A DNA stretch of 63,954 nucleotides, the filler included, from Stramenopiles sp. TOSAG23-6 (Eukaryota): NCBI GenBank assembly GCA_900128565.1. It is 4 parts of 4 records of this genome, joined end to end, with 100 filler letters (N's around TTAATTAATTAA, not from the genome) between each part and the next. Parts side by side here need not be neighbours in the genome. Positions count along the whole stretch, not along the records: positions 50,787 to 63,954 come from LT636173.1; 3 more parts are not named here. One strand, 5' to 3'. Of this stretch, positions 33,925 through 63,954 are shown piece after piece (the first letter of the stretch is position 1; each line of letters begins with the position of its first letter). The position numbers were made by a program, and so were the translations under genes. A model generated the notes under the pieces. That model saw nothing but the letters and a program-made list of their open reading frames with translations. It did not search any database and was not told the origin of the DNA.

Positions 33925-33925
33925 T

Positions 33926-38003: not shown

Positions 38004-38036
<33 letters not shown>

Positions 38037-38515: not shown

Positions 38516-38604
38516 AGTAAATAAATTATTTATCTTTAATTTTTTTTATATAATCAAGTGTGATTCTTTCATATATTTTTATTAGGTTTTCTTTAAGTTA
38601 TTAA

Positions 38605-38835
<231 letters not shown>

Positions 38836-38967
38836 TAGAATTAATTTTATATAGCCTTAATATTTTAAATATTAATTAAGTTTTATATTGTAAAATAAAC
38901 TATTTATTTGTTTAAAAAATAAGATGGTTTCATATTAAATAATACAACCAGATCTTTATTAAATATT

Positions 38968-40362: not shown

Positions 40363-40426
40363 GTTACTTTATTTTAAAGAATTTAAAGGTTGTTTAAGCC
40401 ACCTTGAAAGTGCCTGGTTTTTCCCG

Positions 40427-40955: not shown

Positions 40956-41065
40956 ATTTAGTATTTATTGTTATTTTCTAATGATTTATACTTATGTATA
41001 AATAAAAGAATCTGTCTTTGCATTGCTTAAATTTTGTTTAATAAAAACTTAGTTATATTCTAAAT

Positions 41066-42313
41066 TTATTTTAGATGTATGTAACTGATATAATTTAAAT
41101 TTGCACTATTATTTGCGTATTCTAAATTTTTTTTATTAGCTACATTTTCTAAAAGTATACAAGTAAAATTATTATAATCTATATGTAAAAAATTATAAAT
41201 TTGCTTGTTATTTTTAATTTTATTAATAAAATTATATGCATTATACTTTATAAAATTATAAAATAAATGTTCTAATTTAATAATTTTTTTCAATAACATA
41301 GTATTTTTATTTTTTTTTAAAATAGTTTTTAATTTTTGTATTCAAATTAGTTTAGTTTTTATCTTATTAAATTTATAAAATAACTTTATTTTTTTTTTGA
41401 TACTATGGGTTATTTTTTTTGATAAGATATAAAATTTATCAAAATTAATATTTGTTGTATAGTTTGAAAAATAATCAAATTTAAAACTTTCAAATAAGTA
41501 TTCTATGTATTTGAAATATTTTAAGATACCTTTTAAATTTTTCATATTAATTTTATTTAAATTTTTATAGAGGTATTGGGTTGCTTTTTGTCTAAACTTC
41601 TTTCTTATTGAAAGAAATAGGTATAAACGTTTTTGTAATTTTTTTTTACGGTATTCTTGTAAGATATATAATTGCTTATGAAAATATTTTAATCAGTTAC
41701 AGAACCGTGTTTTAAATAATAAAAGTATAATATTTAATTTTGGTTCTTTAGGTAATTCTATAATATCATTCGGTTTAATTTGTGTATTTGGGTTTTTACA
41801 TAATTTATTATTAATTAGCATACCTTTATACAAAATAAATTTTCGTAGTTGGTGAAAACTTTTAAAAATATTTAAATGATATAAAAAATGGTATACAACA
41901 GCGTCCAACCTTGTGTTCAATTTTTTCAAAAAAATAAAATTACTTAGGTTTTTAGTACGGCTTTTAAAAAAAAGTTTTTTTAATTGTTTATTTTTTAAAA
42001 AACTATATGAATTTTTTAAAAGATGTCTTAAAAATAAGCAATTAACATAAAAAAATTTATAGAAACGTTTGTTTTTTTGACTAAAATTATTATTAAAAAT
42101 ATTATTTTTTGATTGTCTTCGGTTTTTACTTAAAAATGAAGTAAAAATAGAAGCTCTATTTGAAAATTGTCATTTTTTTTGTTGATTCTGTGAAAATTTA
42201 AAACGGAATCAATTTCATTTACGTTTTTTAAAATTATTAATTTTGTTAAAATTACTTAAAACTGTCTTTAATTTGGCTGAAAGTTTATGTTTATAATGAA
42301 AAGGTTTAACCAT
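41066..42313 (-). CDS. rps4: Ribosomal protein S4 (TGA=Trp)
   Basis: KKRKWNW; RLDAVV...QLRKFILYKGMLINNK...IKPNDII S4 domain; ORF pieces share one frame and end in TGA. Confidence 0.8.
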
Positions 42314-42317
42314 ATTT

Positions 42318-43052
42318 TTATTTAAAAAATCTTAGTGTTTTTTTTATTAAAGTTAAATAAAATTTAATAAAAATGATTGATTGATTATTACAAAAGATAG
42401 GAAAATCTATATATTTGTTATAGTTAGCATTTTTAACTAAGGCAATACTTGGTATATCTAGTCTAATAATTTCTTTTAAAAGTTCATTATTACCTTCTTG
42501 TGTACTAAAATTATTAAGTAATAATAAAAGATTGGGTAAAAAATATAATTTTTCTAAGATATCAAATCTATCAAAAAATAAATTAATTTGTTGCTTTCTT
42601 TTCTTTTTCAATTTTGAGATAATTAACTTAGTATAATAGGTTTTAACAGGTAATTTTGGGTTATATCGAAAATCATTAAATGTTTTTTTTAAACCAAAAA
42701 TATTGGTTAAAAGTCCACCTGATCATTCTTTATTAATAATACAAATATTATATTTTTCAAATAAGGATGTTATATTTTGTATTCATTTTTTATTTTCAAT
42801 TTTAAATCCAGTAATTATTAATATAAAACCACCGTTTGATATTATCTTTTTAATAAAAAACAAACTTTGTTTTAGGTCTCTAATGATTCTTTTTATATTG
42901 AAAAAATATATTTTTTTTTCTATAAAAAAAATAAAAGAGTTTGTTTTTGTATTTTTTAAATCTGTTAATTTTGAACCGATATGGGCTCCCATAAAAATTA
43001 GGGTGTTTAATATTAATGATTTTTTATTTTTAATATTTTTGTTAAAAGCCAT
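42318..43052 (-). CDS. rps2: Ribosomal protein S2
   Basis: GAHIG, WSGGLLTN, IPSIALV, IDFPIFCNN. Confidence 0.88.
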
Positions 43053-43616
43053 TTAAATTTTTTTCTTATTACTTTCTTTTAAAGTTGGGTTTTCATTTAG
43101 ATATAAAAGACCTTTTCCTTTATAACTATCTAATTTTCTAATTTTTTTCATAGATGTGCTTATATGCTTTAAACATAAAAGGTCATTACTATATAAAGTT
43201 ATTAGTGTTGCTTTTTGTATAACAACCTTAATATTTTTGGGTATTTTAAAATCAATAATATTTGAAAAACCTACACGTAGTTTTAGAATATTATCAATAA
43301 AAGAAATGAAACGGTAACCAATACCAACCAGCTTTAATTGTAAAAAAAATTGAAATGTTATAGTTTTTAAACTTCGGTTTAGTTGGATTGTGTAATTAGC
43401 AAATTTTTTTTCAAAATCAACCTTAGATTTGTTCATTAAATTATTTTTTTTGAAAGTTACTGTTAATTTATTTAATGTACGGTCATGGTTTAGTTTGATA
43501 TAGCTTTTATTTTTTAATATAACACAACCACAAGGTCCATTTAATTTTATAAAATTATGGAATACTTTTATATCAATATTTTTAGGAATCAGTATTTCTT
43601 CTTTTAAAATTTGCAT
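43053..43616 (-). CDS. rpl6: Ribosomal protein L6
   Basis: LKLVGIGYR, RVGFS, DSYKGKG. Confidence 0.93.
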   Translation of the reverse strand: MQILKEEILIPKNIDIKVFHNFIKLNGPCGCVILKNKSYIKLNHDRTLNKLTVTFKKNNLMNKSKVDFEKKFANYTIQLNRSLKTITFQFFLQLKLVGIGYRFISFIDNILKLRVGFSNIIDFKIPKNIKVVIQKATLITLYSNDLLCLKHISTSMKKIRKLDSYKGKGLLYLNENPTLKESNKKKI

Positions 43617-43622
43617 TATTTT

Positions 43623-44006
43623 TTATAGGATAAAACAAATTGCTTCTCCACCTAGTCCAAGCTTCAAAGCTTTTTTATGAGTCATTAGTCCTTTAGGTGT
43701 GCTTATTAAAAATATACCTGCATTAAAATTTAAACTTGCTAAAAACTTTAATGAAAAAAAAACACGACGGCTTGGTTTTGATATTCTTTTAATTTTTTTA
43801 ATAAAAATAGTATTATTGTTATATCTTAAAAATGTTTTAATCATCTTTTTTGAAGAATCTATACTAAAACCTCGAATAAATCCTTCATCTTGTAAAATTT
43901 TTACAATATTAAGGCTAATTTTTGTATAGTTTAAAAATGTAAAAGATTGTTTAGACATTTGGGCATTACGAATCCTTGAAAAATGATCTCCTATATAATC
44001 AGTCAT
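43623..44006 (-). CDS. rps8: Ribosomal protein S8
   Basis: RIRNA, EGFI, RISKPSRR, STPKGLMT, GGE. Confidence 0.96.
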   Translation of the reverse strand: MTDYIGDHFSRIRNAQMSKQSFTFLNYTKISLNIVKILQDEGFIRGFSIDSSKKMIKTFLRYNNNTIFIKKIKRISKPSRRVFFSLKFLASLNFNAGIFLISTPKGLMTHKKALKLGLGGEAICFIL

Positions 44007-44009
44007 AAT

Positions 44010-44312
44010 TTATCAACTAATTTTTGAAAGTCCAGTAATTAAACCATAACTGGCTTTTTCTCTTAACACAACTCTTGATATTTTAAATTTTTGAAATACC
44101 GATCTTGGCCGCCCAGATATAACACACCGGTTGTTAATTTTAACTTTAAGGCCTTTACGGTTAGTTTTTAAGCTTTTTGAAGCGTCTTGGTTTATAAAAT
44201 CAAACATTTTATCATCGTTTAGGATTGATAGTCCTTTTTTGATAAAATTTGTTTTTTCATTTTTTAAGTATAGGTTTCGTCTTTTTTGTTCTTTATAAAT
44301 GTTACTTTTCAT
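44010..44312 (-). CDS. rps14: Ribosomal protein S14
   Basis: NRCVISGRPR...ISRVVLRE...KISW (TGA=Trp, then TAA). Confidence 0.95.
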
Positions 44313-44451
44313 TTAAATTTTTTGTATTAGGTTTATTATATAAATCATTTTCAAAACGTTGGAATTTTTTAAAATTGTTTATTTTCAAAAATGATATTGA
44401 ACCGTTAGTGAATAGAATTTTTTTTAAAAATTTATTATTAAATTTTTTCAT
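44302..44451 (-). CDS. rpl31: Short ORF, probable ribosomal protein L31
   Basis: 49 aa MKKFNNKFLKKILFTNGSIS...ENDLYNKP filling the tatC-rps14 gap. Confidence 0.55.
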   Translation of the reverse strand: MKKFNNKFLKKILFTNGSISFLKINNFKKFQRFENDLYNKPNTKNLNEK

Positions 44452-45163
44452 TTTTTTGTTTATAATTTTTTAATAAGATTATAAGTTTTAAAGTTATTTC
44501 AAAAAATAATATAAAAGGTATAATCATAATTATTTGGCTTATTAAATCTGGAGGTGTTATAAGTGCTGCTAATATTAGAAAAATAAAATAAAATATTTTT
44601 CTATGATTAGATAACATTTCAATATTCAAAATATTTATAGTAAAAAAAAAATAAATTCATATAGGAAATTGAAATATTATAAGGAACATATAATATATTT
44701 TAATAAAAAAACTTAAATAAGTATCAATACGCCCTTCAAAAAAAATATTGAAAGGGTATTGTGTTATCTCAAATTTAAAAAAAAATGTTAATAAGTTTGG
44801 TAGGAATATTAAGTTTATAAAGAAAAATGTAAATAAAAATAAACTTAAAGATATAAATAATAAGTTTTTAATAATAGAATGTTCATATTTATATAGGCTA
44901 GGAGTTAAAAAATAAAAAATATTCAATATCAAGAAAGGTAACGTTAAAAGTAAGCTATAGATTACAAGTAGGTTTAAATAACATGTGAAAGCATTACTTA
45001 TTTCAGTAAAAATGAAATTAAAACCTTTAAATTTACTGATTGGTTTTGTTGATATATATAATAATATTTCTAAGTTGCTTGTACAAAAAATAAGATTGAA
45101 AATAAAAGCATATATTAGTATAAAAATTCGATTTTTTAATTCTGTAATATAACTAAAAAACAT
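44438..45163 (-). CDS. tatC: Twin-arginine translocase TatC
   Basis: ELKNR, FLTPSLYKYE, FQFP, ALITPPDLISQ; one internal TGA. Confidence 0.93.
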
Positions 45164-45165
45164 AT

Positions 45166-45741
45166 TTATATATTATTATTATTTCAACTTGAAAGTGAGT
45201 TGAATATTCTAAATTCTTGTGCAAATTCATTTTTTTCAAAACATACTCGCTTGATCAAATCATTATACCTTGCTGAAAGGAAACCACTTAAAGGAAAATC
45301 TTTTCGAAAAGGGTGTCCAGTAAAACCGTAATCTGTTAAAATTCGCCTTAAATCTTTATGTTTCGTAAAATTTATACCATACAAATCAAAAATTTCTCTT
45401 TCTAATCAATTACTTGATTTAAATATTTCTGAAATTGTTTGTATTGTAGAAAGTTCACTTAAGGTTGTTTTAACTCGAATTTTTGTATTAAAATTAAAAC
45501 TTGTTAATTGTAAAACTAATTCAAAACGGTTTTTTTATTCAGGGTAGTCTACACATGTATAGTCATTCACCACTCTAAATAGAGCTAATGCAAATAATTT
45601 GAGAAATTGAATAAAGTGGATAAAGCTATCTTTAAACACTTTAAAAACTAATTCACCTGTTCTTGTAAAGGCGACGGTTATTATAGAAAATCTTAAAACA
45701 TTTACTAAAGAAGCGCTGTAATTTTTAAAAACAGTATGCAT
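45166..45741 (-). CDS. nad9: NADH dehydrogenase subunit 9, with one in-frame TAA at 45535-45537
   Basis: [39 protein letters not shown]. Confidence 0.9.
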
Positions 45742-45742
45742 T

Positions 45743-46117
45743 TTATTTAAATTTAGAACTTAAAGTTAAAATTTTTTAATATTTTTTTTGCTTTAATTCT
45801 TTAGGTAAAACACCAAAAACTCTATTCCCAATAAAATTCTTCTTTTTAGTTAAGAGTATACAATTATTTGCCCCAAAATAAAAAGAATTACTTTGATTTC
45901 GTGTTTTATTTCTTTTGGTTTGTGTAATTAAACCTAAACATATTTCTTTTTTTTTTACTTTTATATTACCTTTTTTACGTAACTTTTTTACAGAAACAAC
46001 AATAAGGTCACCTATTGTTCCGTAACTGTGGTTAGCTTTACCTAAGATTTTGATGCATTCAACGGATTTAGCACCTGAATTATCTGAAATATTTAATAAA
46101 GTTCCTGGTTGTATCAT
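45743..46117 (-). CDS. rpl14: Ribosomal protein L14, with in-frame TAA at 45776-45778
   Basis: DNSGAK, GDLIVVSVK, GNRVFG; conserved tail KILTLS lies after the first TAA. Confidence 0.9.
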
Positions 46118-46118
46118 T

Positions 46119-46634
46119 TTACTTTATAAGTATGTTATGTATTTTAAAAAAAAATAAATTTTCTATTATATTGTTATTAGATAATAAAAAATCAATTTTT
46201 AGGTTTTTCAATAGTAGAAAGTGTTCAAATTCACTTTCAAGTTCAGTAAATATAGAAATATCTTCTATATTACAACTGTATAAGTTATTAGTTTTATTGG
46301 GGTTTAATCCTTTAAAAAATTGTATTTGTGGTAAATATATATGTAAAAATTTATTAAAAAAATCATTTAAATCTTTTTTAATTAAAGATGTAGAACATCC
46401 AGTAATTTTGGGTTTTAAACTTTTATTTTTATTTTTTGTTTCTTTTTGTAAAACAGGTTTTGTGTTTGTTATTAATTTTAGTGCTACCAATGCTGGTAAT
46501 GTAGTTTTCCCATTTTTAATATCAAATTTAAAATCAATTCTATTTAAATTTGGTATTTCTTTTGGGTGTTTATAACTAAATTTTTCTAGATATAATATAC
46601 GAATTCGTTGGTTAAAAAAATCTATGTTATCCAT
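46119..46634 (-). CDS. rpl5: Ribosomal protein L5
   Basis: IPNLNRI, LITNTKP, GCSTSL, IFTELE; next to rpl14. Confidence 0.85.
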   Translation of the reverse strand: MDNIDFFNQRIRILYLEKFSYKHPKEIPNLNRIDFKFDIKNGKTTLPALVALKLITNTKPVLQKETKNKNKSLKPKITGCSTSLIKKDLNDFFNKFLHIYLPQIQFFKGLNPNKTNNLYSCNIEDISIFTELESEFEHFLLLKNLKIDFLLSNNNIIENLFFFKIHNILIK

Positions 46635-46697
46635 GTATTGTATTTAAGTTTTTCTTTATTGTTGTATTTCTAAGTTCTAAATTATAAAAAAAATTAA

Positions 46698-47003
46698 TTA
46701 AAATCTTATAATCATTGAATTTACTGCTATATTATTACGTATTCTATAAAACATTACAACAAGTCCTAAACCTATAGCAGATTCTGCTGCTCCTAAAGTT
46801 AAAAAATGTAATGAAAATAGTTGTCCTAAAATATCATCTAAAAACCTTGAATATATTATAAAGTTATAATTAATGCTTAAAAGCATTAATTCAATAGATA
46901 TGAAAATAATTATTATAGATGTTCTATTTAAAATTATACCTAAAAAAGAAATTGTTAAAAGTGAAATTGAGATTATTAAATACTTAGTTAAACTTATAGG
47001 CAT
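46698..47003 (-). CDS. nad4L: NADH dehydrogenase subunit 4L
   Basis: SIELMLL, GQLFSL, AAESAIGL. Confidence 0.95.
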   Translation of the reverse strand: MPISLTKYLIISISLLTISFLGIILNRTSIIIIFISIELMLLSINYNFIIYSRFLDDILGQLFSLHFLTLGAAESAIGLGLVVMFYRIRNNIAVNSMIIRF

Positions 47004-47011
47004 TTTAAAAA

Positions 47012-48019
47012 TTAAAGGTAAAAAATATTATATAAACTATCAAATCCTATTAGGATCCCCGCGATAAAAAACAACCATCCTAAAGTTAAAGGTACAAATA
47101 CTTTTCAACCTAAATACATTAGTTGGTCATAACGGAATCTTGGTAGCATTGCTCGGGCAAGTATAAATAATGAAGCAAAAAATAAAATTTTTAAACTAAA
47201 TCAGAAAGGTCCAGGTATAATATTTAAAAAGTCTAAAGGTGCAAATCAACCTCCTAAAAAGAAAATAGAGATAACCCCACACATTGTTAAAATATTACTA
47301 TATTCACCTAAAAAAAACAAAGCAAACCCCATAGCGGAATATTCAACACTATAACCTGAAACTAACTCAGCTTCAGCTTCTGGTAGATCAAAAGGGTGCC
47401 GGTTAGTTTCAGCTAAAGCTGAAACAAAAAATACCAAAAACATTGGGAATAGGGGTAAAACATACCATACTTGTTTTTGTGCGAAGACTATATCTGTTAA
47501 GTTTAATGAACCTGCACATAAAAAAACTGTTAATACAGTAAAACTTATAGCAATTTCATAAGAAATCATTTGTGCTGCAGAACGTAATGCCCCTAAAAAA
47601 GCATATTTTGAATTACTAGATCACCCTGCCATAATTATTGTATATACACTTAAAGATGATATAGCAAAAAAATAAAGTACACCTAAATTTAAATTAGCTA
47701 TAACCGCATTGTTACCAAAAGGGATTACAACTCAGGCAAGTAGTGCTAGTATAAATGTAAAGATTGGTGAAAGGACAAAAATAATAGGGTTACTAGAACT
47801 AGGTATGATTGTTTCTTTTAATATAAGTTTAACACCATCAGCAATAGCTTGTAATAACCCAAAAAAACCTATAACATTAGGTCCTCGACGTCGTTGTACA
47901 GAAGACATTAATTTTCTTTCTAATAAAGTAAAAAATGCTACAGTAACTAATAAAAGAATTATTAAAATAAGGCTTTTTAAGATAATTGAAATAACAAAAA
48001 GTGTCAGTTTTGATAGCAT
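47012..48019 (-). CDS. nad1: NADH dehydrogenase subunit 1
   Basis: ERK...[40 protein letters not shown]=Trp. Confidence 0.97.
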
Positions 48020-48035
48020 CAAAATATTTTTTGTA

Positions 48036-50090
48036 TTAGTTGAAATTAATTTTAGTAGTGCTTAATGAGGTTTTATTCATAATTCTTGAATTTTTGGTAA
48101 GAATATCTGTTACATAAAAATCTCGTATGTTTGGCTTAGATACATAATTATTTTTATAATTTGTTTCTAAATTAGAATTGATTAGTATTGTTTCTTTAAC
48201 ATATTTCTTTGTCAATAAAAATTTATAATTATTTTCAAAAGTTTTCATTAAAGTTTTTTGATTTGTTATTTTAACATCATAGTTTAAATATTGTAGAAGC
48301 GCTGTAAAAATTTTTCAATCTTGTCGTGATTCTTTTTTCCCTGCATGGGCTTTTTTAGTTTTTTGCAGAAAACTATTAATATTTAAAAAATGGTTTTCTG
48401 ATTCAGTAGTTGTAAGGCTTGGTAAAAAAAGATTAATGTTATTAATATCATTAGTACCATGAGAACCTATATAAATTACTTTAGTTTTTTTATTTAAAAG
48501 GTTTAAATTTATTTTATCTGTATTTAGTAAAAATACAGTATGAAGTTGTTGTAACTTTTTTAAATTAATAGATTGTAAACCTAATTCACAAGCATTAATA
48601 AGGCCCATGTTTGTTGTTAGGTGGTTTATTGCATTATAATCTTTGGTATACAATGAATTTAGATTTCTTTTTAAAATAGAATAAGTTGCATTTGTATTTT
48701 TACTTACTTCATTATTACCAAAAATTATTATTGGTGTTTTAGCTTTTTGTAGGTTTTTAACAGCTAAATTAGATCCTTCTAAAAATTGGTAATTATTATT
48801 TAAATTTAAACCTAAAGACTTTGATTCATAACCAAGGTTTTGGAATGGTCCAGTATAGTAAACTTTCATACGACCATTATAAACATTTTTACGTAATCTT
48901 ATTTGTAAGGCAGATGCCTCTTTTTTAGGGTTAGCTTCTATAAGGTAACAAAAATCAGTATATTCTAATAATTTTAATGTTGTATTAAATTTATAATTAA
49001 AAGGTAAATTTAAATTATATTGTGACTTTGTAATAAGCTCATCATTAAATAATAATGAACTTCCATTTAAATTTAAAAATGTTTTTGCAATCAATAAAGT
49101 TTCTAAACTTGTAAATTTACTTGAAACAATACCTATTTTATTATTTGCTGCCTTTGTAGACAGTTTTATAAACTTAAAAACATCTTTTCAACTTTTTGTT
49201 TCAAAGGTGTTATTAACTGTTTTATATTTTGGAAAAACTAGTCTTTGGATATTTAAACTATCATAATAAAACCGTGTTTTATCAGAAATTCATTCTTCAT
49301 TTATAGAATTATTAAAACAAGGTGTTATATTGATTATTTCATTACCTTTTAAATTTAAAGCAACGTTGGACCCAACGCTATCTAAAACATCAATACTTTC
49401 AACTTGTTCAAGTTCTCATAAACGTCCTTGAAATGCTGATGGTTTTGCTGTTAGAGCACCTAATAATTGAAAGTTTATTTTTTTTGTAAAATTACTTACA
49501 GGGCATAAATCTATAACATTTCCAGAAAGTTCAGATTGAAGTATACTTTTAATGTATGAACCAATTTCAGTTTTTTTACCTCGACCGGTAGTACCTAATG
49601 TAGTTACACCTGCAATTTCATGAGCGAAACGTATACATCTAGTACAATGGATACAACGTGTCATAATAGTTTTTATTAACGGACCACCTATCTTATCTTC
49701 AACACTTCTTTTTTCATTGTAAAACCTACCGCTATCAGAACTATAAAAAAATGATTGATCTTGTAAGTCACATTGCCCACCTTGATCACAAATAGGACAA
49801 TCTAACGGGTGATTTAATAATAAGAATTCCATAACGGCTTCTCTTGCTTTTTGAACCGTTGGTGTATTTGTAAAAATTTTAATACCTTCCATTACTGGAA
49901 AGGTACATCCTGTTACAGGTTTTGGAGACTTTTCTATTTCAACTAAACACATTCGACAATTTCCTGCTATTAATAAACGTTCGTGGAAACAAAAACGGGG
50001 TAGGTCGATACCTACTTGAGTACAAGCTTGCAATACTGTTGTATTGTTAGAAACTTTAAACGAAATACCATCAATTTCAATATTTACCAT
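48036..50090 (-). CDS. nad11: NADH dehydrogenase subunit 11, unsplit (TGA=Trp)
   Basis: [51 protein letters not shown]; one frame throughout. Confidence 0.95.
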
Positions 50091-50121
50091 TGATTTTTTA
50101 ATTTATATTATGGTTATTTTA

Positions 50122-50208
50122 CGGAAAGGGTGGGGTTCGAACCCACGAAGCAGCAATTGCTGCGTTAGTTTAGCAAACTAATACTTTAAACCACTCAGTC
50201 ACCTTTCC
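50122..50208 (-). tRNA. trnS: tRNA-Ser(GCT)
   Basis: Cloverleaf, long variable arm, anticodon loop TTGCTAA, GGTTCGAAC. Confidence 0.92.
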
Positions 50209-50210
50209 TT

Positions 50211-50283
50211 CGAGAACGACAGGACTTGAACCTGCACAAACCGGTTCGACAAACCGGTACTCTACCAATTAAGCTACGCTCCC
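50211..50283 (-). tRNA. trnD: tRNA-Asp(GTC)
   Basis: Anticodon arm CCGGT-TTGTCGA-ACCGG; GGTTCAAGTCC. Confidence 0.92.
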
Positions 50284-50686
50284 TTTTTCATAAATAAAGA
50301 ATATTAATAAAGAAGTTACTAATATATTCAAATCTAAGAAATAAAAAATAAAATCATTAAAACCTACAAAAGTTATTAAACATACTACACTAATTAACAT
50401 TACAAAAGTGTAATGGTATATTAGCCCAGTTTGTAGTTTTAATGCGTTAAAATGTTTATTATATAATAAGCTAGATAATCCAAAAGGTCCAAAAAATTCA
50501 ATAAAACCACGATCTACTAGTTTATAAGTACCATTATACCCTATTTTTAGTGTAAATTGGTTAATAGTTTTATTATATAATTTATCTATAAATCACTTTC
50601 GATTAAAAAAATTATAAAATTGTAGACCAAAAGATGTTATCTTAAATTCATAAATATTTTTAATTTTTAATTGATAATATAAAATA
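50269..50686 (-). CDS. nad5: NADH dehydrogenase subunit 5, 3' part
   Basis: NRKWFIDKLYN, DRGFIEFFGP, LQTGLIYHY. Confidence 0.92.
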
Positions 50687-50786
50687 NNNNNNNNNNNNNN
50701 NNNNNNNNNNNNNNNNNNNNNNNNNNNNNNTTAATTAATTAANNNNNNNNNNNNNNNNNNNNNNNNNNNNNNNNNNNNNNNNNNNN
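50687..50786. other. Artificial contig linker
   Basis: N-run, TTAATTAATTAA, N-run. Confidence 0.99.
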
Positions 50787-50866
50787 AAAAAAAAAAAAAA
50801 AAAAATTGTTAGGTACAAAATTTCGTATGAAAAAAAAAATTAAAAAATTCATGATGAAAAAAGTAC
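50787..50866 (-). other. Family-A intron, 5' part at contig edge
   Basis: GTACTTTTTT...CATACGAAATTTTGTACCTAAC. Confidence 0.7.
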
Positions 50867-51660
50867 ATTTTTTCGTGTACTTGTCTCAATGACAATGTTA
50901 AATACTCCATCTGATGTATATATTCCATTCAAATTAAGTGAACTGTCGCCAAATATTGTAAAATAATATTTCAAAAAATTGATTTTTTTGTTGGGTATAT
51001 AATTGTATAGGAAAAAAAAAATTCAATTTTGAAAACGTATATATGAAATAGACACTTTTAAAAAAAAAAAAAAAAAAATCGTTAGGTACGAAATTTCGTA
51101 GGAAAAAAAATAAAATTCATTCTACAAAAACATACATTTGAACCATCATCATTTCCATGAATAGAATGTGTTGATTGTGTTGGGACACCAACAAATAATA
51201 TTAATTCAATATCGTATAATGGATTATTTTTGTTTTTTACATTCTTGGATGTATTGTCAGATGATATATCTTTTGCCCAGGAGCATTCTACAGAAAATTG
51301 AGCGTTACTTAAATCACTTTTTAGACCTTTTACAGTGACTTTTTTACTACGACATAATTTTTCCAACTCTGGCTCTGAATCTACCATTTCATTTACAATA
51401 AAAGACATCACTTTATCTACATATGTTACTACTTGCTTTTGTCGAGAAAGTTTTGGAAGGTCTTCCTTCATGCACCAGAAAGGTAGCCTGTGTTGTTGAG
51501 TTTCAAATAAAGGTAACATATCAGTAGCGATTACGGGATATTCACCAACATTGACATCACCTTTATGACAATAATTTCCAAGTATAAAGAATGCATTTGA
51601 ATTAACTATTGTACTTTTTGATTCAACTACAGGCTTAAATAATACGTAGATGGAACGCAT
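50867..51660 (-). CDS. Hypothetical protein, 3'-partial (exons 51136-51660 and 50867-50950)
   Basis: ORF MRSIYVLF...DDGSN continues in phase 0 as GDSSLNLNG... after two tandem family-A elements. Confidence 0.55.
50951..51135 (-). other. Two tandem family-A introns, probably flanking a micro-exon
   Basis: Two core motifs; donors GTATG (51135) and ATACG (51040); final end TACAATATTT. Confidence 0.6.
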
Positions 51661-52131
51661 TTTTTTTTTTTTTTTTTTTTTTAAAGGAAATTCCGCACAG
51701 TTATTCAACAAAAACGTTTACCGCAACTCACCAAAAAAAAAAAAAGATGATCTCTATACCGTCGTTGATGATTAATACAATGAATTATCCAAAGAGTTGA
51801 TGATGCTTCACTTTGGTCTATGTAGAATCGTAATCTGATGAAATATTTTGGTTGCTTTTGTGGTGCAGAAAAGAGCGCCCTTTGTTTTTTTGCTCTCACA
51901 CAGCAGTCGGTTATAATTTTTAAAAAACCCTAACCCTAGTAAATATAAGCGATCTAGATCCAATAATAAATATTTAACGGTTGTTCATTTTTCATTTGCG
52001 CAACGTATCCTATATGTAATAATAATAATCGATTATTAAAGAAGATCACTGTATTAAACCATTTTACTTCATCACGTACATACTACATTTTCACTACAGC
52101 TATATCAAAGTAAATTCATTCACTGTGCAGA

Positions 52132-55100
52132 ATGCTGTCTCATGAAATAGCATCAGGAACGAATAAAGAAGTTCAGCAGAAGACAAATGCTTTAAAGGAT
52201 AAAGTGAGTGTGAAAATTGTTGCTCAGAACACCAAAAATCGTAAACCTCAACTTTCAAAGACATCTCCAAATGATGTGCATGTTGAATATGGAAATTACG
52301 AAATGGATGAAAGACAGGAAGTTCAATCTGGGTGCTTTTTACTGTTTTTACTCATAATTATTTTGGTCACTTTTCTTTTAACGTGGTCAACATATTCAAT
52401 CATTGAGTATGCAGATGGAAACGTGAATGATACATACATTTTTGGGTCGAGTGCACCTGCTTTACTCCTAATTATACTGGGTATCATGATCTACATTCTC
52501 CGAATTCGTAATAAGTCTTCGAAAAACGTCATTAATAATACAACATTATGTATTATTATGATACTATTAATGAGTGGCGCAGCTGTTGGAGGTTATTTTT
52601 CGATTAAAGAATTGTATGGTAAAAATTCATTTTGTGAGTATATGCGAAGCTTTCAAGTGAACATAAATCCCAATGAAATTTGTCAACGAAAACAACTGCT
52701 TGAAGAAATGGATAATAACATCAACGCCCATAATTCAAGTAATACAGAATGTTCAGCTAGTCAATCTAAATTAAGTCATCAAACGGAACTTGAAGTATTG
52801 CACTCACTTGGACTTCATGATGCTGAAGGTCTGTACAAACAATTTTTTGGCGGTTACTCTAGTACCCTGTCGTTGACCAATTATGATGCATGTACAAAAA
52901 TCGATTGGTCCGATGGAACAAAGAATGCAGAATGTACAGCTAAAGTTTCTCAAGCTGTAACACCTCCAAAACACCAAGGCGATTGCTCATCATCTTGGGC
53001 AATGGTGACAGTTGCACTTATTGAATCAGCGTATGTCATCCAAAGAGACGTAAAAGATGTCGTACCTTTTTCCGTTGAACATATTGTCAATTGTCAACCT
53101 ACTGTAAACGTAAATGGTAAAGATTATCATGGTTGTCATGGTGGGAATGCCGTATTTGCTTTACAGCAACTGAAATCTGAGGGTATCTGCACTGCTGAAA
53201 AGTATCCTTATTCATACTATAATCCAGCTGAAGTAACGAAATGCCTTGACAGCTCAAACTGTGATAAGTCTGTTGAAGCTCTTGAAACTAAAGCATTTGA
53301 GTATGAAACAGGAAAGGCGTGCAAAAATGAAATCACAGAGAAATGTACAGATGTGAGTGTAAAAAACATTTATAAAGTGGCAGAAGATGGGACAATGACA
53401 GAGGCTCAAATAAAAAAGGTACTTGCAAACAAAGGTCCAATTGCTATTGGGCTAAGTATAGACATTGCAAATGTGGGCGATTTTATGAAGAAACATACCT
53501 GCATCATTACTCCAACATGTGGCAATGTCACAGAATCCGGTTTAATTGTTGGTTACGATGAAACTGATTCTAATAACAAATATTGGAAAGTAAAAATGTC
53601 ATGGGGTGAGGAAATTGGTACTTTCTTGTCATACATTTTCATTTTTTTTTTCTTTTACCAAAAATAGTACCTAACAAATTGTATTACTGTAAAACATATC
53701 TTTTTTCATAATAGGTGAAGGTGGATTCATAAAACTCAAAATGGGAAGTGAAAAGTGTTTATATGATGGGTATTTTGTGGAAATAAATGATATTTCAGTA
53801 AAAACTCCGCCACCTACGGATCCAGTAAAAAAGCAACAAGTGGAGGCTGCGATAAAAACGGCAAGCGAAGGACACAAAAGTGTATTTTTTTTTCATGCAA
53901 ACATGAATGATTTTAGGTTTTAAATGATCATTTTTTATTTATTTTAAATATGTATGACATATTGTAAAGATTATTTACAGTATTTTCGGCTTATCTTCAA
54001 AAGATGAATGATTTTTGCTTTTACATGATAAAAGTTGTTATTCATTTGCAATACTATTTTGACATATTGTGTAGATTATTGCAAGTATTTTGGTTTTTCT
54101 TGCAAACATGAATTAGGGTTAGCTATTAAATGATAACAATGATTTTTTATATACAATATAATTGACATATTGTACAGATTATTGGATGTATTTTTGCTCT
54201 TCTTGCAAACATGAGTTAGCGTTAGCTATTAAATTATAATAGTATTTATTTATTTGAAGTACTCTTGACATATTGTGCAGATTATTTGCTGTATTTTTGT
54301 TTTTTCTTGCAATGATGGATGATGATTACTTTAGAATGATGAAAATGTTGATTTATTTCAAAAACCATTGACATATTGTATAGATTATTGAATGTATTTT
54401 TTTTTATTCAAAAGATGAATGATGATTACTTTTAAATGATAATAATGTTGATTTATTTCATATACTATTGACATATTGTACAGATTACTTGCTGCATTTT
54501 ATTTTTCTTGCAAAGATTATTAATGTTAGATTTTAAAATAACGATGTAAATTCATTTGAAGTACTATTGACATATTGTACAAATTATTGGTTATATTTTT
54601 GTTTTTCTTGCAATGATGGATGATGATTACTTTTACATGATAATAATGTTGATTTATTTCATATACTATTGACATATTGTACAGATTATTTGCTGTATTT
54701 TTGTTTTTCTTGCAATGATGGATGATGATTACTTTTAAATGATAAAAATGTTGATTTATTTCAAAAACCATTGGCATATTGTATAGATTATTGTTTGTAT
54801 TTTTGTTTTTCTTGTAATGACGGATGATGATTGCTTTTAAATGATAATAGTGTTGATTTATTTCATAAACTATTGACATATTGTACAATTTTTTTAACAT
54901 ATTTTTGTTTTTCTTGCAATGATGGATGATGATTACTTTTAAATGATAATAATGTTGATTTATTTCAAAAACCATTGACATATTGTATAGATTATTTGCT
55001 GTATTTTTGTTTTTCTTGCAATGACGGATGATGATTACTTTTAAATGATAATAATGTTGATTTATTTCAAATACTATTGACATATTGTATAGATTATTGT

Positions 55101-58100
55101 GCGTATTTTTGTTTTATTCAAAAGATGAATAATGTTNGCTTTTAGATGATAACAATATTTTATCATTTACAATATCTATGACATATTGTACAGATTATAG
55201 GATGTATTTTTGATTTTAATCAAAAGATGAATGATTTAGCTTTGAAATGATAATAATGCTTATTCATGTACAATATCCATGACATATTGTACAAATTATT
55301 GAAGGTATTTTTGTTTTTCTTGCAAAGATAAATTATGCTAGATTTTCAATAATATCAATGTTGATTCATTTTAGATACTTTTGATATATTGTACATATGA
55401 TTTTGTGTATCGTTGCTTTTCTTGCAAATATGAATAATGTATGCTTTGAAGAAACAACGTTGATTCATTTAAACTGCTAGTAACATATTGTACAAATTAT
55501 TGAAGGTATTTTTGTTGTTATTCAAAAGATGAATTATATTTGGTTTTAAATGATATCAATGCTTATTGATTTGAAATACTAGTGACANATTATGTAGATA
55601 ATTGGCAGTATTTTTGGCTTTATGCAAAAGATGAATGATGTTTGATTTTAAATGATAATATTTTTTATTCATTTTAAATACTATTGACATATTGTAGAGA
55701 TTATTGAGCGTATTTTTGAATTTGTGGAAAAGATGAATGAAGTTTGATTTTAAATAATAATATGTTTTATTTGTTTAAATACTATTGACATATTGTACAG
55801 ATTATTGGCAGTATTTTTGGATTTATGGAAAAGATTGATGGCGTTAACATTTAAATGATAATTAAATGATGATTTATTTTAAATACTATTGATATATTGT
55901 ACAGATTATTGTGGGTATTTTTGTTTTTGTTGCAAAGATGAATATTGTTTGCATTTTATTGATAACAATGTTCATTCATTGAAAATATTATTGACATATT
56001 GTAGAGATTATTGTACGACAAATGGATAAATTTGGTATTTTTGTTTTTATTCAAAAGATGAATAATGTTTGCATTTATATGATACAATATTTATTTATTT
56101 CAAATACTAGTGACATATTGTAGAGATTATTGGCCGTATTTTTGTTTTTGTGGAAAAGATGAATAATGTTTGCTTTTATATGAAAAAAATGTTGATTTAT
56201 TTAAAATACTATTGACATATTGTACAGATTATTTCCAGTATTTTTGTTTTTCTTGCAAATTTGAATGATGTTTGCTTTTATATGAAAAAAATGTTTCTCA
56301 TTTCAAATACTATTGACATATTGTGTAGATTATTTCAAGTATTTTTGTCTTTATTCAAAAGATGAATAATGTTTGCTTTTATATGATAAAAATGTTTATT
56401 TATTTAAAATATTAGTGACATATTGTAGAGATTATTGTCTGTATTTTTGTTTTTATTCAAAAGGTTGAATGATGTTTGCTTTTTAATGATGAAAATGCTT
56501 ATCTATTTCATATACTATTGACATATTGTAGAGATTATGGACTGTATTTTTGTTTTTGATCAAAAGATGAATAATGTTTGCTTTTTAATGATACTAATAT
56601 TTATTTTGTATACTAGTGACATATTGTACATATTATTTAATGTATTTTTGTTTTTAATCAAAAGATGAATACTGTTTTCTTTCAAATTACACCAATGTTT
56701 AATCATTTCCAATACTGAGGACATATTGTAGACATTATTAGACGTATTTTTGTTTTTATTCAAAAGGTTGAATGATGTTTGCTTTTTAATGATGAAAATG
56801 CTTATCTATTTCATATACTATTGACATATTGTAGAGATTATGGACTGTATTTTTGTTTTTGATCAAAAGATGAATAATGTTTGCTTTTATCTGAAAAAAA
56901 ATGTATATTTATTTCAAACAATATTGACATATTGTATGGATTATTGGAAGTATTTTTGTTTTTATTCAAATGATGAATGATGTTTGCTTTTACATGATAA
57001 AAATATTTATTTATTTCATATACTATTGACGTATTGTAGACATTATTGTACGTATTTTTTTTTTATTCAAAAGATGAATACTGTTTAGGGTTAGAATGAT
57101 ATAAATGTTGATTCATTTCAAATACTATTGACATATTGTAGAGATTATTGATGGTATTTTTGTTTTTATTCAAAAGATGAATAATGTTTGCTTTTATATG
57201 ATGAAAATGTTGATTTATTTCATATACTATTGACATATTGTACAAAATATTGACAGTATTTCTGTTTTTATTCAAAAGATGAATAATGTTTGCCTTTATA
57301 TGATGAAAATGTTGATTTATTTAAAATATTAGTGACATATTGTATAGATTATTGCTTGTATTTTGTTTTTATTCAAAAGATGAATGGTGTTTGCTTTAGA
57401 ATGATATCAATGTTTATTTATTTTGTATACTATTGACATATTATACAGATTATTGGACGTATTTTTGTTTTTCTTGCAAATTTGAATGATTTTTGCTTTA
57501 GAATGATAAAAATGTTTATTTATTTCATATATTATTGACATATTGTAGACATTATTGCAAGTATTTTTGTTTTCTTGCAAAGATGAATTATTTTAACTTT
57601 TACTTGATAACAATGTTTATTCATTAAAAATACTATTGACATATTGTAGAGATTATTTCGAGTATTTTTGTTTTCATTCAAAAGATGAATGATGTTTGCG
57701 TTTTAATGATAAAACTGTTTATTCATTTCATACACTAGTGACATATTGTAGACATTATTGATCGTATTTTTCTTTTATTCAAAAGGTTGAATGGTGTTTG
57801 CTTTTTAATGATAAAATTGCTTATTTATTTTGTATACTATTGACATATTGTACAGATTATTTCGAGTATTTTTGTTTTTTTTCAAAAGATGAATGATGTT
57901 TGCTTTGAAATGATAAATATGTTGATTTATTTCATATACTAGTGACATATTGTAGGCATTATTGAACGTATTTTTGGTTTTATTCAAAAGGTTGAATGAT
58001 GTTTGCTTTTGCATGATGAAAATATTTATTTATTTCAAATACTATTGACATATTGTACAGATTATTGCAAGTATCTTTGTTTGTATTCAAAAGATGAATG

Positions 58101-61100
58101 GTTTTAGCATTTTAATGATAATAATGATTATTTATTTCAAATACTATTCACATATTGTACAGATTATTGCCTGTATTTTGGTTTTATTCAAAAGATGAAT
58201 GATGTTTGCTTTAGAATGATATCAATGTTAATTTATTTAAAATACTATTGGAATATTTTACAGAGTATTGTATGTATTTTTGTTTTTATTCAAAAGATGA
58301 ATGATGTTTGCTTTTGCATGATGAAAATGTTTATTTATTTCAAATACTATTAACATATTGTATATATTATTGGCTGTATTTTTGTTTTATTCAAAAGATG
58401 AATGATGTTTACTTTAGAATGATATCAATGTTTATTTATTGAAAATAGTATTGAAAATATTGTAGAGATTATTGACCGTATTTTTGTTTTTATTCAAAAG
58501 ATGAATGATTTTAGCTTTTAAATGATAAAAATGTTGATTTAATTTGTATACTATTGACATATTGTACAGATTATTTAATGTATTTGTTTTTATTTAAAAG
58601 ATGAATGATTTTAGCTTTTAAATGATAAAAATGTTGATTTATTTTGTATACTATTGACATATTGTAGATATTATTTGAAGTATTTGTTTTTATTTAAAAG
58701 ATGAATGATTTTAGCTTTTAAATGATAAAAATGTTGATTTATTTCAAATACTGTTGACATATTGAATAGATTATTGACTGTATTTTTGTTTTTATTCAAA
58801 CAAAGAAAGATGTTTGATTTTGACATGATAAAAATGTTTATTTATTTCAAATACTGTTGACATATTGTAGAGATTATTAAAAGTATTTTTGTTTTTGTTC
58901 AAAAAATGAATACTTCTAGTTTTTAAATGATGTCAATGACTGTTTATTTCATATACTATTGACGTATTGTAGACATTATTGTTTGTATTTTTCTTTTATT
59001 CAAAAGGTTGAATGGTGTTTGCTTTTTAATGATAAACTGTTTATTTATTTATTTTGTATACTAGTGACATATTGTAGAGATTACTGGAAGTATTTTGTTT
59101 TTATTTGAAAGATTAATAATTTTAGGTTTAAATGATAACAATTGTTATTAATTTAAAATAGAATTGACATATTGTACAGATAATGCACCATATTTTGGTT
59201 TTTCTTACAAAGATGAATAATGTTTGCTTTTCAATGATAATAATGTTTATTCATTGAAAATACTATTGATATATTCTGAAGATTTTTTTGTGTATTGTTG
59301 TCTTTCTTGCTCTGGCAGATACTGATTTTTACTAAATATCAATATGTATTTATTTCATACACAAGTTACATATTGTAGAGATTATTGGCTGTATTTTTGT
59401 TTTTCTTACTATGATAAATGATGTTGGCTTTTGAATACAAAGAATGTGTTTTCATTTCCAATACAATTGACATATTGTACAGATTACTTGATGTATTTTT
59501 ACATTGGTGTAAAGATGAATAATATCAACTTTTAAATGATAAACATGTTCATTTATTTCAAATACTATTGACATATAGTTCAAATTTTTGTTTGTATTTT
59601 TACTCTTCTTGAAAAGATTAGTGATGGTTGCTTTTATATGATATTAATGTTTATTCATTTGTAAATACTATTGGCATATTCTCCAGATTATTGCGAGTAT
59701 TTTTATTCTTCTTGCATAGATGAATGATGGTTGGGTTTAATTGATAGTAATGATCATTTATTAATAATACTATTGACATATTGTAGACATTATTGACTGT
59801 ATTTTTGGTTTTATTCAAACAATGAATGATGTTTGCGCTTAAAGGATCATAATTATTATTTATTAATAATATTATTGACATATTCTAAAGATAATTTGAA
59901 GTATTGGGATTTTCCCTGCAGAAATGATTCATGTTTGCTTTGAAAATAACAATGTTTATTTATTTACAAAACTATTGACATATTCTAAAGATAATTGTGT
60001 GTATTTTTAATGTTGTGCCTATTCCAATATTGTTGGCTTTGAAAATAAAAACGGTTATTCATTTCAAATACTATTTGCATATTGTACAGGTCATTTGAAG
60101 TATTTTTGGTTTTCCTGCAAATATGAATATTATAACTTTTTCAATGATATCAATGTTTATTTATGTCAAATACGTTTGACATATTGTACAGATTATTGCG
60201 GGTAAATTTGTAGTTCTTACAAAGATAAATGATGCTAACTTTTGAAATAATGTTTATTTATGTCAAATACATTTGAGATATTGTATAGAGTATTGGCAGT
60301 ATTTTGGTAGTTCTTGCAGAGATGAATGATTTTAACTTTTAAAAAAAGGTTGATTCATTCGAAATACTATTGACATATTGTATAAATTATTGAAAGTATT
60401 TTTGAATTTTTTCCGAAGATGAATGATGTTCAATTTTTAAAGAATGTTTGTTTGTCCATTTCAAATACATTTGACATATTGTATGGATTATTGGCCGTAT
60501 TTTTGTTTTTATTCAAACGATGAGTGATGTTTTCTTTAGAATGATCACAATGTTTATTTATTTCAAATACAATTGATATATTGTATAGATTATTGACCGT
60601 ATTTTTGTTTTTCTTGAAAAGATGAATAATGTTTGCTTTAAAGTGATGAAACATTGATTCATTTTAGATACTATTGACATATTTTATAGATTATTGTTTG
60701 TATTTTTGTCGTTCTTGCAATGATGAATGATTTCACCTTAAATGATGGCAATATTTATTCATTTGAAATACGATTGACATATTGTTCAGATTTTTGTGCG
60801 TATTTTTGTTTTTCTGCATATATATGAATGGATTGTCCTTGTAAAGATTTAATTATATATTCATTTACAAAACAAGTGACATATTGTGTAGATTATTTCG
60901 AGTATTTTTGTTTTTTTGCATAGATGAATGATTTGTCCTTGTAAAGATTACATTATATATTCATTTCAAATACTATTGACATATTGTAGAGATTATTGTC
61001 AGTATTTTGTTTCTATTCAAAGGATGAATGGTGTTTGCTTTAAAATGATATCAATATTTATTTATTTCATATACTATTGACATATTGTAGACATTATTGA

Positions 61101-63943
61101 CTGTATTTTTGTTTTTATTCAAAAGATGAATGGTTTGAGCATTTTAATGATAATTAAATGATTATTTATTTCAAATACTATTGACATATTGTAGAGATTA
61201 TTGGCGGTATTTTTGTTTTTATTCAAAAGATGAAAAGTTTTTGCTTTAGAATGATAAAAATGTTGATTTATTTTGTATACTAGTGACATATTGTATAGAT
61301 TATTGGACGTATTTTTATTTTTATTCAAAAGATGAATGATGTTTGCTTTAGAATGATAAAACTGTTTATTTATTCAAAATACTGTTGACATATTGTACAG
61401 ATTATTGAAAGTATTTTTGTTTGTATTCAAAAGATGAATTATGTTTGCTTTTATATGATAATAATGTTTATTTAGTTAAAATATTAGTGACATATTGTAC
61501 ATATTATTGGGCGTATTTTTGTTTTTATTCCAAAGATGAATAATGTTTGCTTTTTAATGATAACAATGTTTATTTATTTTGTATACTAGTGACATATTGT
61601 ACATATTATTTGATGTATTTTTGTTTTTATTCAAAAGATGAATGATGTTTGCTTTAGAATGATATCAATGATTGTTCATTTAAAATACTATTGACATATT
61701 GTATAGATTATTGGATGTATTTTTATTTTTATTCAAACGATGAATAATGTTTAGTATGATAACAATGTTTATTTATTTCAAATAATGCTGACATATTGTA
61801 CAGATTATTTGTGGTATTTTGATTTTATTCAAAATATGAATAATGTTTGCTTTTAAATAATGACAGTGTTTATTCATTCAAAATATTACTGACATATTGA
61901 ATAGATTATTGAGAGTATCTTTGTTGTTTATGAAAAGATACCAAATTTATAGTTTGTAAAGATAATGTTATTTATGCATGTATAATACTATTGACATATT
62001 AGAAACATTATTATTGGGAGTATTTTGTGCTTTCTCTCAAAAATGGATGATCTTTGCTCGAAATAAAGTCAATATTGATTCATTTGAAAGATTGTTAATG
62101 TATTGTGCAAATTATGTTTAGTAATTTTGTTTCTCTTGGAAAGATAAATTATCTAAGCTTTCAAAAAAAATGTTTATTCATTTCAAATACTAGTGACATA
62201 TTGTATAGATTATTCAAGGTATGTTTTGTTTTTCTTTAAAAGATGAATAATGGTAGGTTTGAAGTGATAACAATATTTATTCATTTAAAATACAATTGAA
62301 ATATTGTATAGATTTTGATGTGTATTTTTGTTTTTGTTGTAAAGATGAATGATGATAGGTTTGAAGTGATAAAAANAATTATTCATTTGAAACACTAGTG
62401 ATATATTGTATAGATTATTTGNTGTATTTTTNTTTTTCTTNAAAAGATAACAATGTTTCCTTTTAAATGATAACAATATTTATTTCTTTCACTAGTGATA
62501 TATTGTTGAGATTATTGTTGGTACCTTTGCCTTTCTTGCAAAGTTTTGATTATTTTTTCTTTGGTATGATAAGAATAGTTATTTATTTGAAACACTATTG
62601 ATATATTGTATAGATTATTGGATGTATTTCTGTTTTTTTCAAAAAGAATGAATAATTTTTGTTTTTAAATGATATCAATGATTATTCATTTCAAATACTA
62701 GGGACATATTGTATAGATTATTTGACGTATTGGAATGTTCCTTGCAGAAAAAAATTGTGTTTACTTTGAAAATAACAATGTGTATCTATTTACAATACTA
62801 TTGACATATTCCAAAGATAATTGTGTGTATTTTTTTTTTGTGCTCCTTTTAATACTGTTGGTTTTGAAAATTAAAATGGTTATTTATTTAAAATACTTTT
62901 GACATATTGTATAGATTCTTGACAGTATTTTTGCTTTTCTTCAAAAGATGAATACTGTTGACTTTACAATGATAAAAATATTTTTTCATTTTAAATAGTA
63001 TTGACATATTGTAGAGATTATTGCAAGTATTTTTGTTTTTATTCAAAAGATGAATGATGTCTGCTTTTTTACATGAGAAAAATGTTTATTCATTTAAAAT
63101 AGTTTTGACATATTGTAGAGATTACTGTTGGTATTTTTGTTTTTATTCAAAAGATGTATTATGTGTGCTTTAGAATGATATCAATGTTTATTTATTTCAA
63201 ATACTATTAAACTATTGTAGGCATTATTGGGCGTATTTTTGTTTTTATTCAAAAGATGAATAATTTTAGTTTTTAAATGATATCAATGATTGTTCATTTC
63301 AAATACTATTGACATATTTTACAGAATATTGTGTGTATTTTAGTTTTGGTACAAATATGAGTGATGTTTACTTTTGAAAAGCAAAATAAGTCATTGAAAA
63401 TCTCTTTTGACATATTGCACAGATTATTGGTTGTATTTTTTTTTTATTCAAAAGGTTGAATGGTGTTTTCTTTGAAATGATAATAATGTTTATTTATTTC
63501 AAATACAATTGACATATTGTAGAGATTATTGGTTGTATTTGTGTTTTTATTCAAAAGATGAATAATGTTTGCTTTTATATGATAAAACTGTTTATTCATT
63601 CAAAATACTATTGACATATTGTAGAGAGTATTGAACGTATTTTTATTTTTATTCAAAAGATGAATACTGTTTGCTTTAGAATGATATCAATGTTTATTTA
63701 TTTCAAATACTAAGTGACATATTGTAGACATTATTGGGTGTATTTTATTTTTATTCAAAAGATGAATAATGTTTAGGGTTAGAATGATATAAATGTTTAT
63801 TTATTTCAAATACTACTGACATATTGTAGACATTATTGGCGGTATTTTTGTTTTTATTCAAAAGATGAATGATGTTTGCTTTTAGATGCTAAAAATGTTT
63901 ATTTATTTCCTACACCAGTGACATATTTTACAGATTATTGAAT
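52132..63943 (+). CDS. Membrane-anchored papain-family (C1A) pseudoprotease with micro-exon-encoded C-terminal extension; runs off window
   Basis: Exons 52132-53617 and 53715-53881 are well supported (QGDCSSSWA, SVEHIVNC, GCHGG, IVGY, YWKVKMSWG, GEGGFIKL). The 99 micro-exons from 53977 on are inferred. Confidence 0.75.
53618..53714 (+). other. Canonical GT-AG intron carrying the family-A core
   Basis: GTACTT...GTACCTAAC...CATAATAG; restores SWGEEIGEGGF. Confidence 0.88.
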
Positions 63944-63954
63944 GTATTTTCAAT
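53882..63954 (+). repeat. Array of ~99 ~102-bp units: ~99-nt conserved intron-like unit (family B) plus 3-nt variable exon
   Basis: Consensus GTATTTTTGTTTTTATTCAAAAGATGAAT...TACTATTGACATATTGTAsAGATTATTk followed by NNN; the repeat itself is certain, the intron reading is inferred. Confidence 0.9.

Follow-up and report, generated by a model that had tools for sequence, protein, structure and literature searches.

The window analyzed here, a stretch of 63,954 nucleotides (nt) from Stramenopiles sp. TOSAG23-6 in which four contigs are joined end to end, contains on its last contig a papain-family cysteine protease gene whose second exon leads directly into a long array. This array is a chain of copies of an element of about 99 nt, each followed by a variable slot that is exactly 3 nt long in 98 of 99 cases and 21 nt long in one. 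We tentatively read the slots as present or former coding sequence of the 3' part of the protease gene that may have been split by copies of the element, and we read the 21-nt slot as a seven-codon stretch carrying no element. The features on which the argument rests are the following.

52132..53617, plus strand: exon 1 of the papain-family (Peptidase_C1) cysteine protease gene, encoding N-terminal hydrophobic stretches (open reading frame 52132-53667)
53618..53714, plus strand: intron of the protease gene, 97 nt, canonical GT-AG, in frame, with TACCTAAC 39 nt before the AG
53715..53881, plus strand: exon 2, encoding the rest of the peptidase domain and a 30-residue tail, ending in AAA AGT in phase 0
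53882..63954, plus strand: chain of 99 copies of the ~99-nt element (GTATTTTTG...GATTATTG), with a variable slot, 3 nt long in all but one case, after every copy; runs off the contig end
55915..56013, plus strand: element copy directly upstream of the 21-nt slot (alignment row u55959_56078, motif positions)
56014..56034, plus strand: 21-nt slot, TACGACAAATGGATAAATTTG, 7 codons reading YDKWINL in the slot register
56035..56132, plus strand: element copy directly downstream of the 21-nt slot, followed by the slot GCC (56133-56135)

Discrete elements at the end of a protease gene

At 53881-63950, Tandem Repeats Finder detected 99.1 copies of a 102-base-pair (bp) unit, matching at 75%, and also a 204-bp higher-order signal. 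A search with the unit profile found 99 units, every one of them on the plus strand and within the array, whereas the remaining 53 kb of the window gave no match; ATTATTKNNNGTATT occurred 64 times inside the array and once outside (7067), with 0.19 occurrences expected by chance. The units differed by 22% on average. In the profile alignment the slot occupied columns 56-58, with entropies of 1.91, 1.92 and 1.87 bits, and the columns flanking it, 49-54 (ATTATT) and 59-62 (GTAT), were 93-100% conserved. Of the 17 internal insertions in the array, 14 were single bases, and the remaining three measured 2, 3 and 18 nt.

The elements are discrete units, and the first base of the first one is the edge of the array. 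The base that follows the last codon of exon 2, the AGT ending at 53881, is the G of the GTATTT of the first element. When exon 2 together with the first unit was compared with three later regions, the local alignments began at 53881/53882 in all three. The 40 nt preceding the last exon 2 codon were 23% identical to the 3' end of the element, compared with a mean of 87% at 63 internal junctions. Homology thus starts with the element's own first base, which makes the repeated entity a discrete stretch of about 99 nt, with the slots lying between copies.

An ordinary satellite beside the gene, with conserved boxes CATATTGTANAGATTATTG and GTATTTTTG (bound, for example, by a DNA-binding protein) and a free 3-nt spacer that drifts, is a serious alternative, though a somewhat less likely one. 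The protease would then end 13 codons into the first unit, and the codon-like look of the slots would be due to chance and local mutation bias. A satellite accounts well for the head-to-tail repeat, its 75% matches and its 204-bp signal; the core of the unit (columns 34-66) is better conserved than the rest and almost free of indels, and such conservation would also keep the slot length at 3 nt. The peptidase domain needs no extension to be complete, and the telomere-like string TTAGGGTTAG occurs in three units, as might be found in a subtelomeric repeat. However, a satellite gives no reason for the array to begin precisely with the base that follows a slot; the chance that a satellite with an internal variable triplet would begin at that edge is about 1-3 in 102. 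It also requires selection on ~90 positions in each of 99 units, which is hard to justify.

The open reading frame (ORF) at 52132-53667 matched Pfam PF00112 with an E value of 1e-29 over residues 273-497, corresponding to profile positions 11-196 of 220. Joining exon 1 to exon 2 at the predicted 5' site, AAATTG/GTACTT at 53617/53618, improved the phmmer scores of 144 of the 151 homologues retrieved, with a mean gain of 9.7 bits, and the alignments then extended to residues 505-513; exon 2 alone was too short for comparison with Pfam or with one homologue. Removal of the predicted intron at 53618-53714 thus restores the rest of the peptidase domain. Neither of the protein collections searched yielded an orthologue of the protease: a word-index search gave one weak match, and an exhaustive search gave 2655 matches at E values up to 0.001, all of them remote papain-family relatives, the best with 34% identity and an E value of 2e-19. 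If the transcript is read on from exon 2 without splicing, a TAA is met at 53921-53923, 13 codons inside the first element.

Tandem small RNA genes, for example spliced-leader-like or guide-like genes each with its own 3-nt variable part, would be consistent with the conservation of most positions in the units, and GTATTTTTG holds an AUUUUUG string resembling the Sm-site consensus. This explanation is very improbable, however: no Rfam family and no transfer RNA (tRNA) was found in the array, neither strand yielded a consensus RNA structure, 40 units folded with an energy no better than that of shuffles (z +0.23), and a 102-bp unit is too short to accommodate a promoter.

Some further observations concern the array as a whole. 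The string TTAGGGTTAG replaces part of the three units at 54113, 57085 and 63773. Straight translation of the units on the plus strand was rejected as a source of protein, the consensus frames stopping within 9-14 codons by eye. On the minus strand, an ORF of 185 amino acids (54526-55083) crosses five units of exactly 102 nt and is the only ORF of at least 120 amino acids in the array; the minus-strand open frame of the consensus yields one such ORF only, because unit lengths vary, and we take it as a composition effect. A scan of metagenomes with the junction motif did not find a second array; it gave five loci with a single match each, three of which had weak partial matches to the unit profile (E values of 3e-4 to 4e-3).

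The slots as possible codons and the 21-nt slot

The slots vary independently of the copies that surround them. Pairs of units with 90-95% identity outside the slot, across 97 columns (n = 90), shared 0.81 of the three slot positions, and pairs that were 50-70% identical (n = 520) shared 0.77; in unit pairs of 95.8% identity, TGC stood in one slot and GTT or ATG in the other. Columns 73, 76 and 77 followed relatedness, their agreement rising from ~0.3 to 0.7-0.8, whereas the slot columns stayed at 0.24-0.32, and the mutual information of the slot columns with any other column was not above the shuffle level. Pairs sharing a slot did exist (ACT/ACT at 99% unit identity and GCT/GCT at 94.8%), and GCT recurred in units 4, 6, 8 and 11. 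Since these shared slots are found in near-identical or locally related units, some units must have been duplicated together with their slot. We found no true diagonals among units that would reveal block duplications with synonymous change, because consensus-like units resemble one another at all offsets. That slots are at chance similarity even in units 95% alike is difficult for a satellite, in which homogenization should have carried the slots along.

Slots unrelated to the neighboring copies would also be expected of a concatemer, in which molecules of ~99 nt were joined end to end with about 3 untemplated filler bases per junction and landed 3' of the gene. Such a product could derive from an excised RNA through a template-jumping reverse transcriptase, or from DNA fragments linked by end joining; reverse transcriptases that jump templates add a few untemplated bases. 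A concatemer would explain the discrete elements and the edge at the element end as well, and the element opens with GTAT like the 5' end of an intron. We nevertheless consider a concatemer quite unlikely. Fillers of variable length would be expected, whereas all but one of the 99 slots measure exactly 3 nt; untemplated bases would not be expected to avoid stops in the phase of the upstream ORF, nor to drop in GC at the third position; and units differing by 22% on average are not one recent product.

Joined together, the slots keep the reading frame in phase with exon 2, and together they form an open frame. In this phase the slots comprised 105 codons without a stop, where 4.3 stops were predicted from the column frequencies (P = 0.012). 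Only 0.74% of column shuffles (n = 97 slots) were stop-free, and shuffles in which two of the slot positions were kept paired gave P values of 0.013, 0.003 and 0.046; the P value for the absence of stops thus ranges from about 0.003 to 0.05 with the null model chosen. In the remaining five frames of the joined slots, stops numbered 4, 18, 2, 1 and 7. The GC content of the slots by position was 0.51/0.49/0.31, compared with 0.22 for the array, and the genes of the window have 0.47/0.37/0.27 by codon position. A satellite leaves unexplained both the absence of stops in the phase of the ORF and free positions at 31-51% GC in an array of 22% GC. The codon-usage log-likelihood of the slots was -387.7, and that of in-frame gene samples was -378.3 +/- 9.7; among inter-ORF triplets, 5.6% of samples reached the likelihood of the slots.

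The single long slot was read directly in the sequence at 56014-56034, between GATTATTG at 56006-56013 and GTATTT at 56035-56040, where the first-pass annotation had placed it. That annotation described it as the only long spacer, stop-free, a multiple of 3 in length and unlike the repeat, and each of these statements held: every other slot is 3 nt long, YDKWINL is read in the register of the other slots, and the 21-mer had no significant match in the array or in the rest of the window, with shuffled 21-mers equaling its score in 20% (array) and 30% (rest) of cases. It does not fix the register of the other slots, as had been proposed; the register is set by the conserved flanks of the units and by the phase-0 junction of exon 2 at 53881/53882. 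Nor is it more than a weak internal control for a chain of micro-exons, since stops are absent from five of its six frames, any one frame of a random 21-mer with the composition of the array has about an even chance of being open, and a length divisible by 3 has a chance of 1 in 3. The 18 extra bases of this slot are the sole large indel in the array, they are placed exactly in a slot, and they leave the slot frame open. The position of the insertion exactly in a slot is worth more than its open frame. In a satellite, an insertion of 18 nt between two half-sites would occupy the most disruptive spot. Under a non-coding model, the missing stops, the phase and the long slot's length have a combined probability of roughly one in a thousand, which is suggestive but is not proof.

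DNA of the window was present in two small runs of one sample (X1 and X2, 16-18 million letters of contigs) and partly present in two marine metagenomes of other studies (X3 and X4); the source is therefore a marine protist. A contig of X4 (record 29) covered 55914-56071 with 8 mismatches and no gaps and thus spanned the 21-mer, so that the long slot is no assembly error, as the first-pass annotation had allowed it might be. That annotation had also suggested looking for alleles with introns inside the 21-mer; the sole metagenome contig across the site carries it uninterrupted. The observed sequence is compatible both with a stretch that was never invaded and with one from which six introns were lost through cDNA, the two origins which that annotation proposed. 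An assembly or amplification artefact as the origin of the array is the least probable of all explanations. The source runs are small, single N bases occur in the window, and X1 and X2 contigs join distant units. However, X3 and X4 contigs from two other studies match array units, independent contigs 663-739 nt in length agree with the array without a single difference, and only the long-range order is in doubt. Separate X1 and X2 contigs (2668 nt) bridge the protease gene into the first four units of the array.

Splicing signals and possible mechanisms

Several observations weigh against the slots being coding sequence. Codon usage does not separate them from AT-rich non-coding triplets: array triplets outside the slots had a log-likelihood of -396.1 +/- 11.5, with 24% of samples reaching that of the slots, and among stop-free shuffles the likelihood of the slots gave only P = 0.046. 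Both this failure of codon usage and the excess of TGY in the slots are compatible with a satellite. There were 8 TGY slots (P = 0.001), but TGY prolongs the flanking TG run and could arise from it, and two of the 8 look like duplicates by eye. The absence of stops is partly due to the TGY slots and to the few A that follow T in the slots. Columns 46 and 48, which co-vary with one another and with column 43 and mark unit variants, are also variable and GC-rich, and they are coding under no model. The peptide of the joined slots had no match among the 151 fetched protease relatives that was better than those of shuffles (best E value of 0.018, compared with 0.042-0.96 for 10 shuffles). The long-range order of the units is insecure, as X1 and X2 contigs connect distant units, and therefore only statistics that do not depend on order were relied on. 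Finally, we know of no process that inserts copies at 3-nt steps.

The splicing signals weigh on the same side, apart from the 5' end of the element, which is GT (among the 99 units, 97% have G at column 59 and 99% have T at column 60). The 3' end, columns 54-55, is TG in 70% and TT in 24% of units, and not AG. An AG at columns 47-48, present in 71 of 99 units, was tried as the splice site and rejected; it would give exons of 10 nt with 15-17 stops per frame. The element contains no CTAAC, and TTGAC at columns 33-37 is its sole branch-like string. It also lacks TACCTAAC, a motif common to the other introns of the window. When ten of these introns were aligned, a (C/G)TAAC motif was found in all ten and TACCTAAC in eight; since they were chosen by the TACCTAAC-type motif, they are not an independent, unbiased sample. 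We infer that TACCTAAC is the branch site of the introns of the window. An in-frame GT...AG solution was obtained for six of the ten, the other four being out of frame by simple ORF continuity. The unit profile had no match to the TACCTAAC-type introns at an E value of 0.01, and an alignment with MAFFT revealed a T-rich likeness only. The micro-exon model of the first-pass annotation was thus supported by the open frame, the GC content of the slots and the edge of the array, and it was weakened by the TG/TT ends and by the absence of TACCTAAC.

If the slots are nevertheless present or former coding sequence, copies of one element would have spread to neighboring positions in steps of 3 nt. Alternatively, a unit of element plus codon may have been duplicated and the elements homogenized later. 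For a C-terminal tail to be produced, each copy would have to be excised from the precursor messenger RNA at its GT...TG/TT borders. If the copies stay in, the protein would end 13 codons into the first element, and the slots would be the fossil of an old frame. An active micro-exon chain, in which about a hundred homologous introns of ~99 nt are removed and a tail of at least 105 residues is assembled codon by codon, is the less likely form of the coding reading, the fossil frame being the likelier one, and we regard such a chain as unlikely. In such a chain, the 21-mer would be the sole place where seven codons are still contiguous.

Surrounding sequence, known systems and implications

The four contigs of the window and their contents are as follows.

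1-16958 and 17059-33824: contigs 1 and 2, nuclear, with EF-hand/IQ, calponin-homology, DEAD-box helicase and ABC transporter genes
33925-50686: contig 3, mitochondrial, with large and small ribosomal RNA (rRNA), two tRNAs and two oxidoreductase gene fragments
50787-63954: contig 4, nuclear, with the protease gene and the array, including the 21-nt slot

The contigs are separated by 44 N, TTAATTAATTAA and 44 N at 16959-17058, 33825-33924 and 50687-50786; as they are artificially joined, neighborhood across these spacers is meaningless. On contig 3, a molybdopterin oxidoreductase fragment (Pfam Molybdopterin, nad11-like) lies at 48315-49094 on the minus strand, and a fragment of a membrane subunit of NADH-quinone oxidoreductase (Pfam Proton_antipo_M) was also found. 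On the same contig, at window positions 34319-38526, a gap of 43 nt separates the large-subunit rRNA from the small-subunit rRNA that directly follows it. Another genetic code (e.g. TGA as tryptophan) or editing may apply to this mitochondrial contig; these were considered because its ORFs under translation table 11 are short.

Upstream of the protease gene, AACCCTAACCCTAG occurs at 51928, ~200 nt before the start codon. A minus-strand ORF at 51082-51711 matched no Pfam family at an E value of 0.001; it seemingly runs on through two introner-like copies toward the contig start (50787-51711), and in this region the run contigs showed many alternative joints, as expected of a dispersed repeat. 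These copies belong to an introner-like intron family of ~100-130 nt in the window, which is of very high copy number. Its members begin with GTAYGTTTT (GTAYGT) and contain a T-rich stretch, then ...CGTACGAAATTTTGTACCTAACGATTTTTTTTTGAAATATTTTTCCAAAATACAT and a nearby AG. The TACCTAAC-type motif was found at positions 13, 6720, 7944, 9692, 10678, 11505, 12714, 16497, 16934, 17076, 21834, 50815 and 51088, with the variants GTAAC at 11505 and TATCTAAC at 16497. Four contig ends fall within introner-like copies, and word depth was 9689-15278 over the copies at 50787-51173, compared with 14-25 on the neighboring gene. By eye only, the ends of these copies resemble short inverted repeats (ATGTAYGTTTT / AAAATACAT).

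We compared the array with systems in which short elements interrupt genes or alternate with unique sequence. Isolated micro-exons of 3 nt occur in animals, in RPS24, MAP4K5 and PICALM (PMC12686416, PMC8632122, PMC4148152). They resemble the slots in being one-codon exons between introns that keep the frame, but they are isolated and lie between unrelated GT-AG introns, whereas the array would have ~98 in series, one element between them and no AG. The papers found in searches on introners and micro-exons included isolated 3-nt exons but no chains of them.

Introners are intron-generating mobile elements of marine protists and algae; they are dispersed, with one per intron, and have GT-AG borders. 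Like the array element, they form families of near-identical, intron-sized elements within genes, as the TACCTAAC family of this window does in many genes. The array element differs in being arranged in tandem at 3-nt spacing, in lacking AG and TACCTAAC, and in being confined to the array within the window. Satellite DNA with protein-binding boxes shares the head-to-tail units of ~100 bp, the conserved and variable positions and the higher-order period. It differs from the array, whose triplet is unlinked to relatedness, stop-free and phased with an ORF, whose edge is the border of a slot, and whose slots, apart from a few duplicated pairs, are not inherited with the rest of the unit.

Arrays of the clustered regularly interspaced short palindromic repeat (CRISPR) type are alike in form only, in that homogeneous repeats alternate with unique inserts of fixed length. 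Here, in contrast, the array is nuclear and eukaryotic and adjoins a gene with a spliceosomal intron, repeats of 99 nt alternate with 'spacers' of 3 nt, and no palindromic repeat structure was found in the units. The internal eliminated sequences of ciliates are likewise many short elements that interrupt coding DNA and need precise removal, but the ends of the array element are not TA. A ciliate origin is not suggested by the long ORFs in the standard code or by the mitochondrial contig with a nad11-like gene, judging from gene content. Among the matches listed (15 of 94 joints), no DNA contig had a 99-nt skip in the array.

Whichever reading holds, the architecture is not one that we can file under a known kind. 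Even without removal of the copies, discrete elements with fixed, unique 3-nt spacers that start from a codon border need explaining, and an array of this kind is not expected under current models of either satellite evolution or introner insertion. An active micro-exon chain, if true, would need AG-independent splicing that defines serial exons of 3 nt, or some other precise excision, and also a means by which an intron could spread one codon at a time. If the slots are coding, the protease gene would have an unprecedented architecture, in which an intron-like element has colonized every codon of a frame, and it would bear on how introns spread and on the minimum exon size that the splicing machinery can handle.

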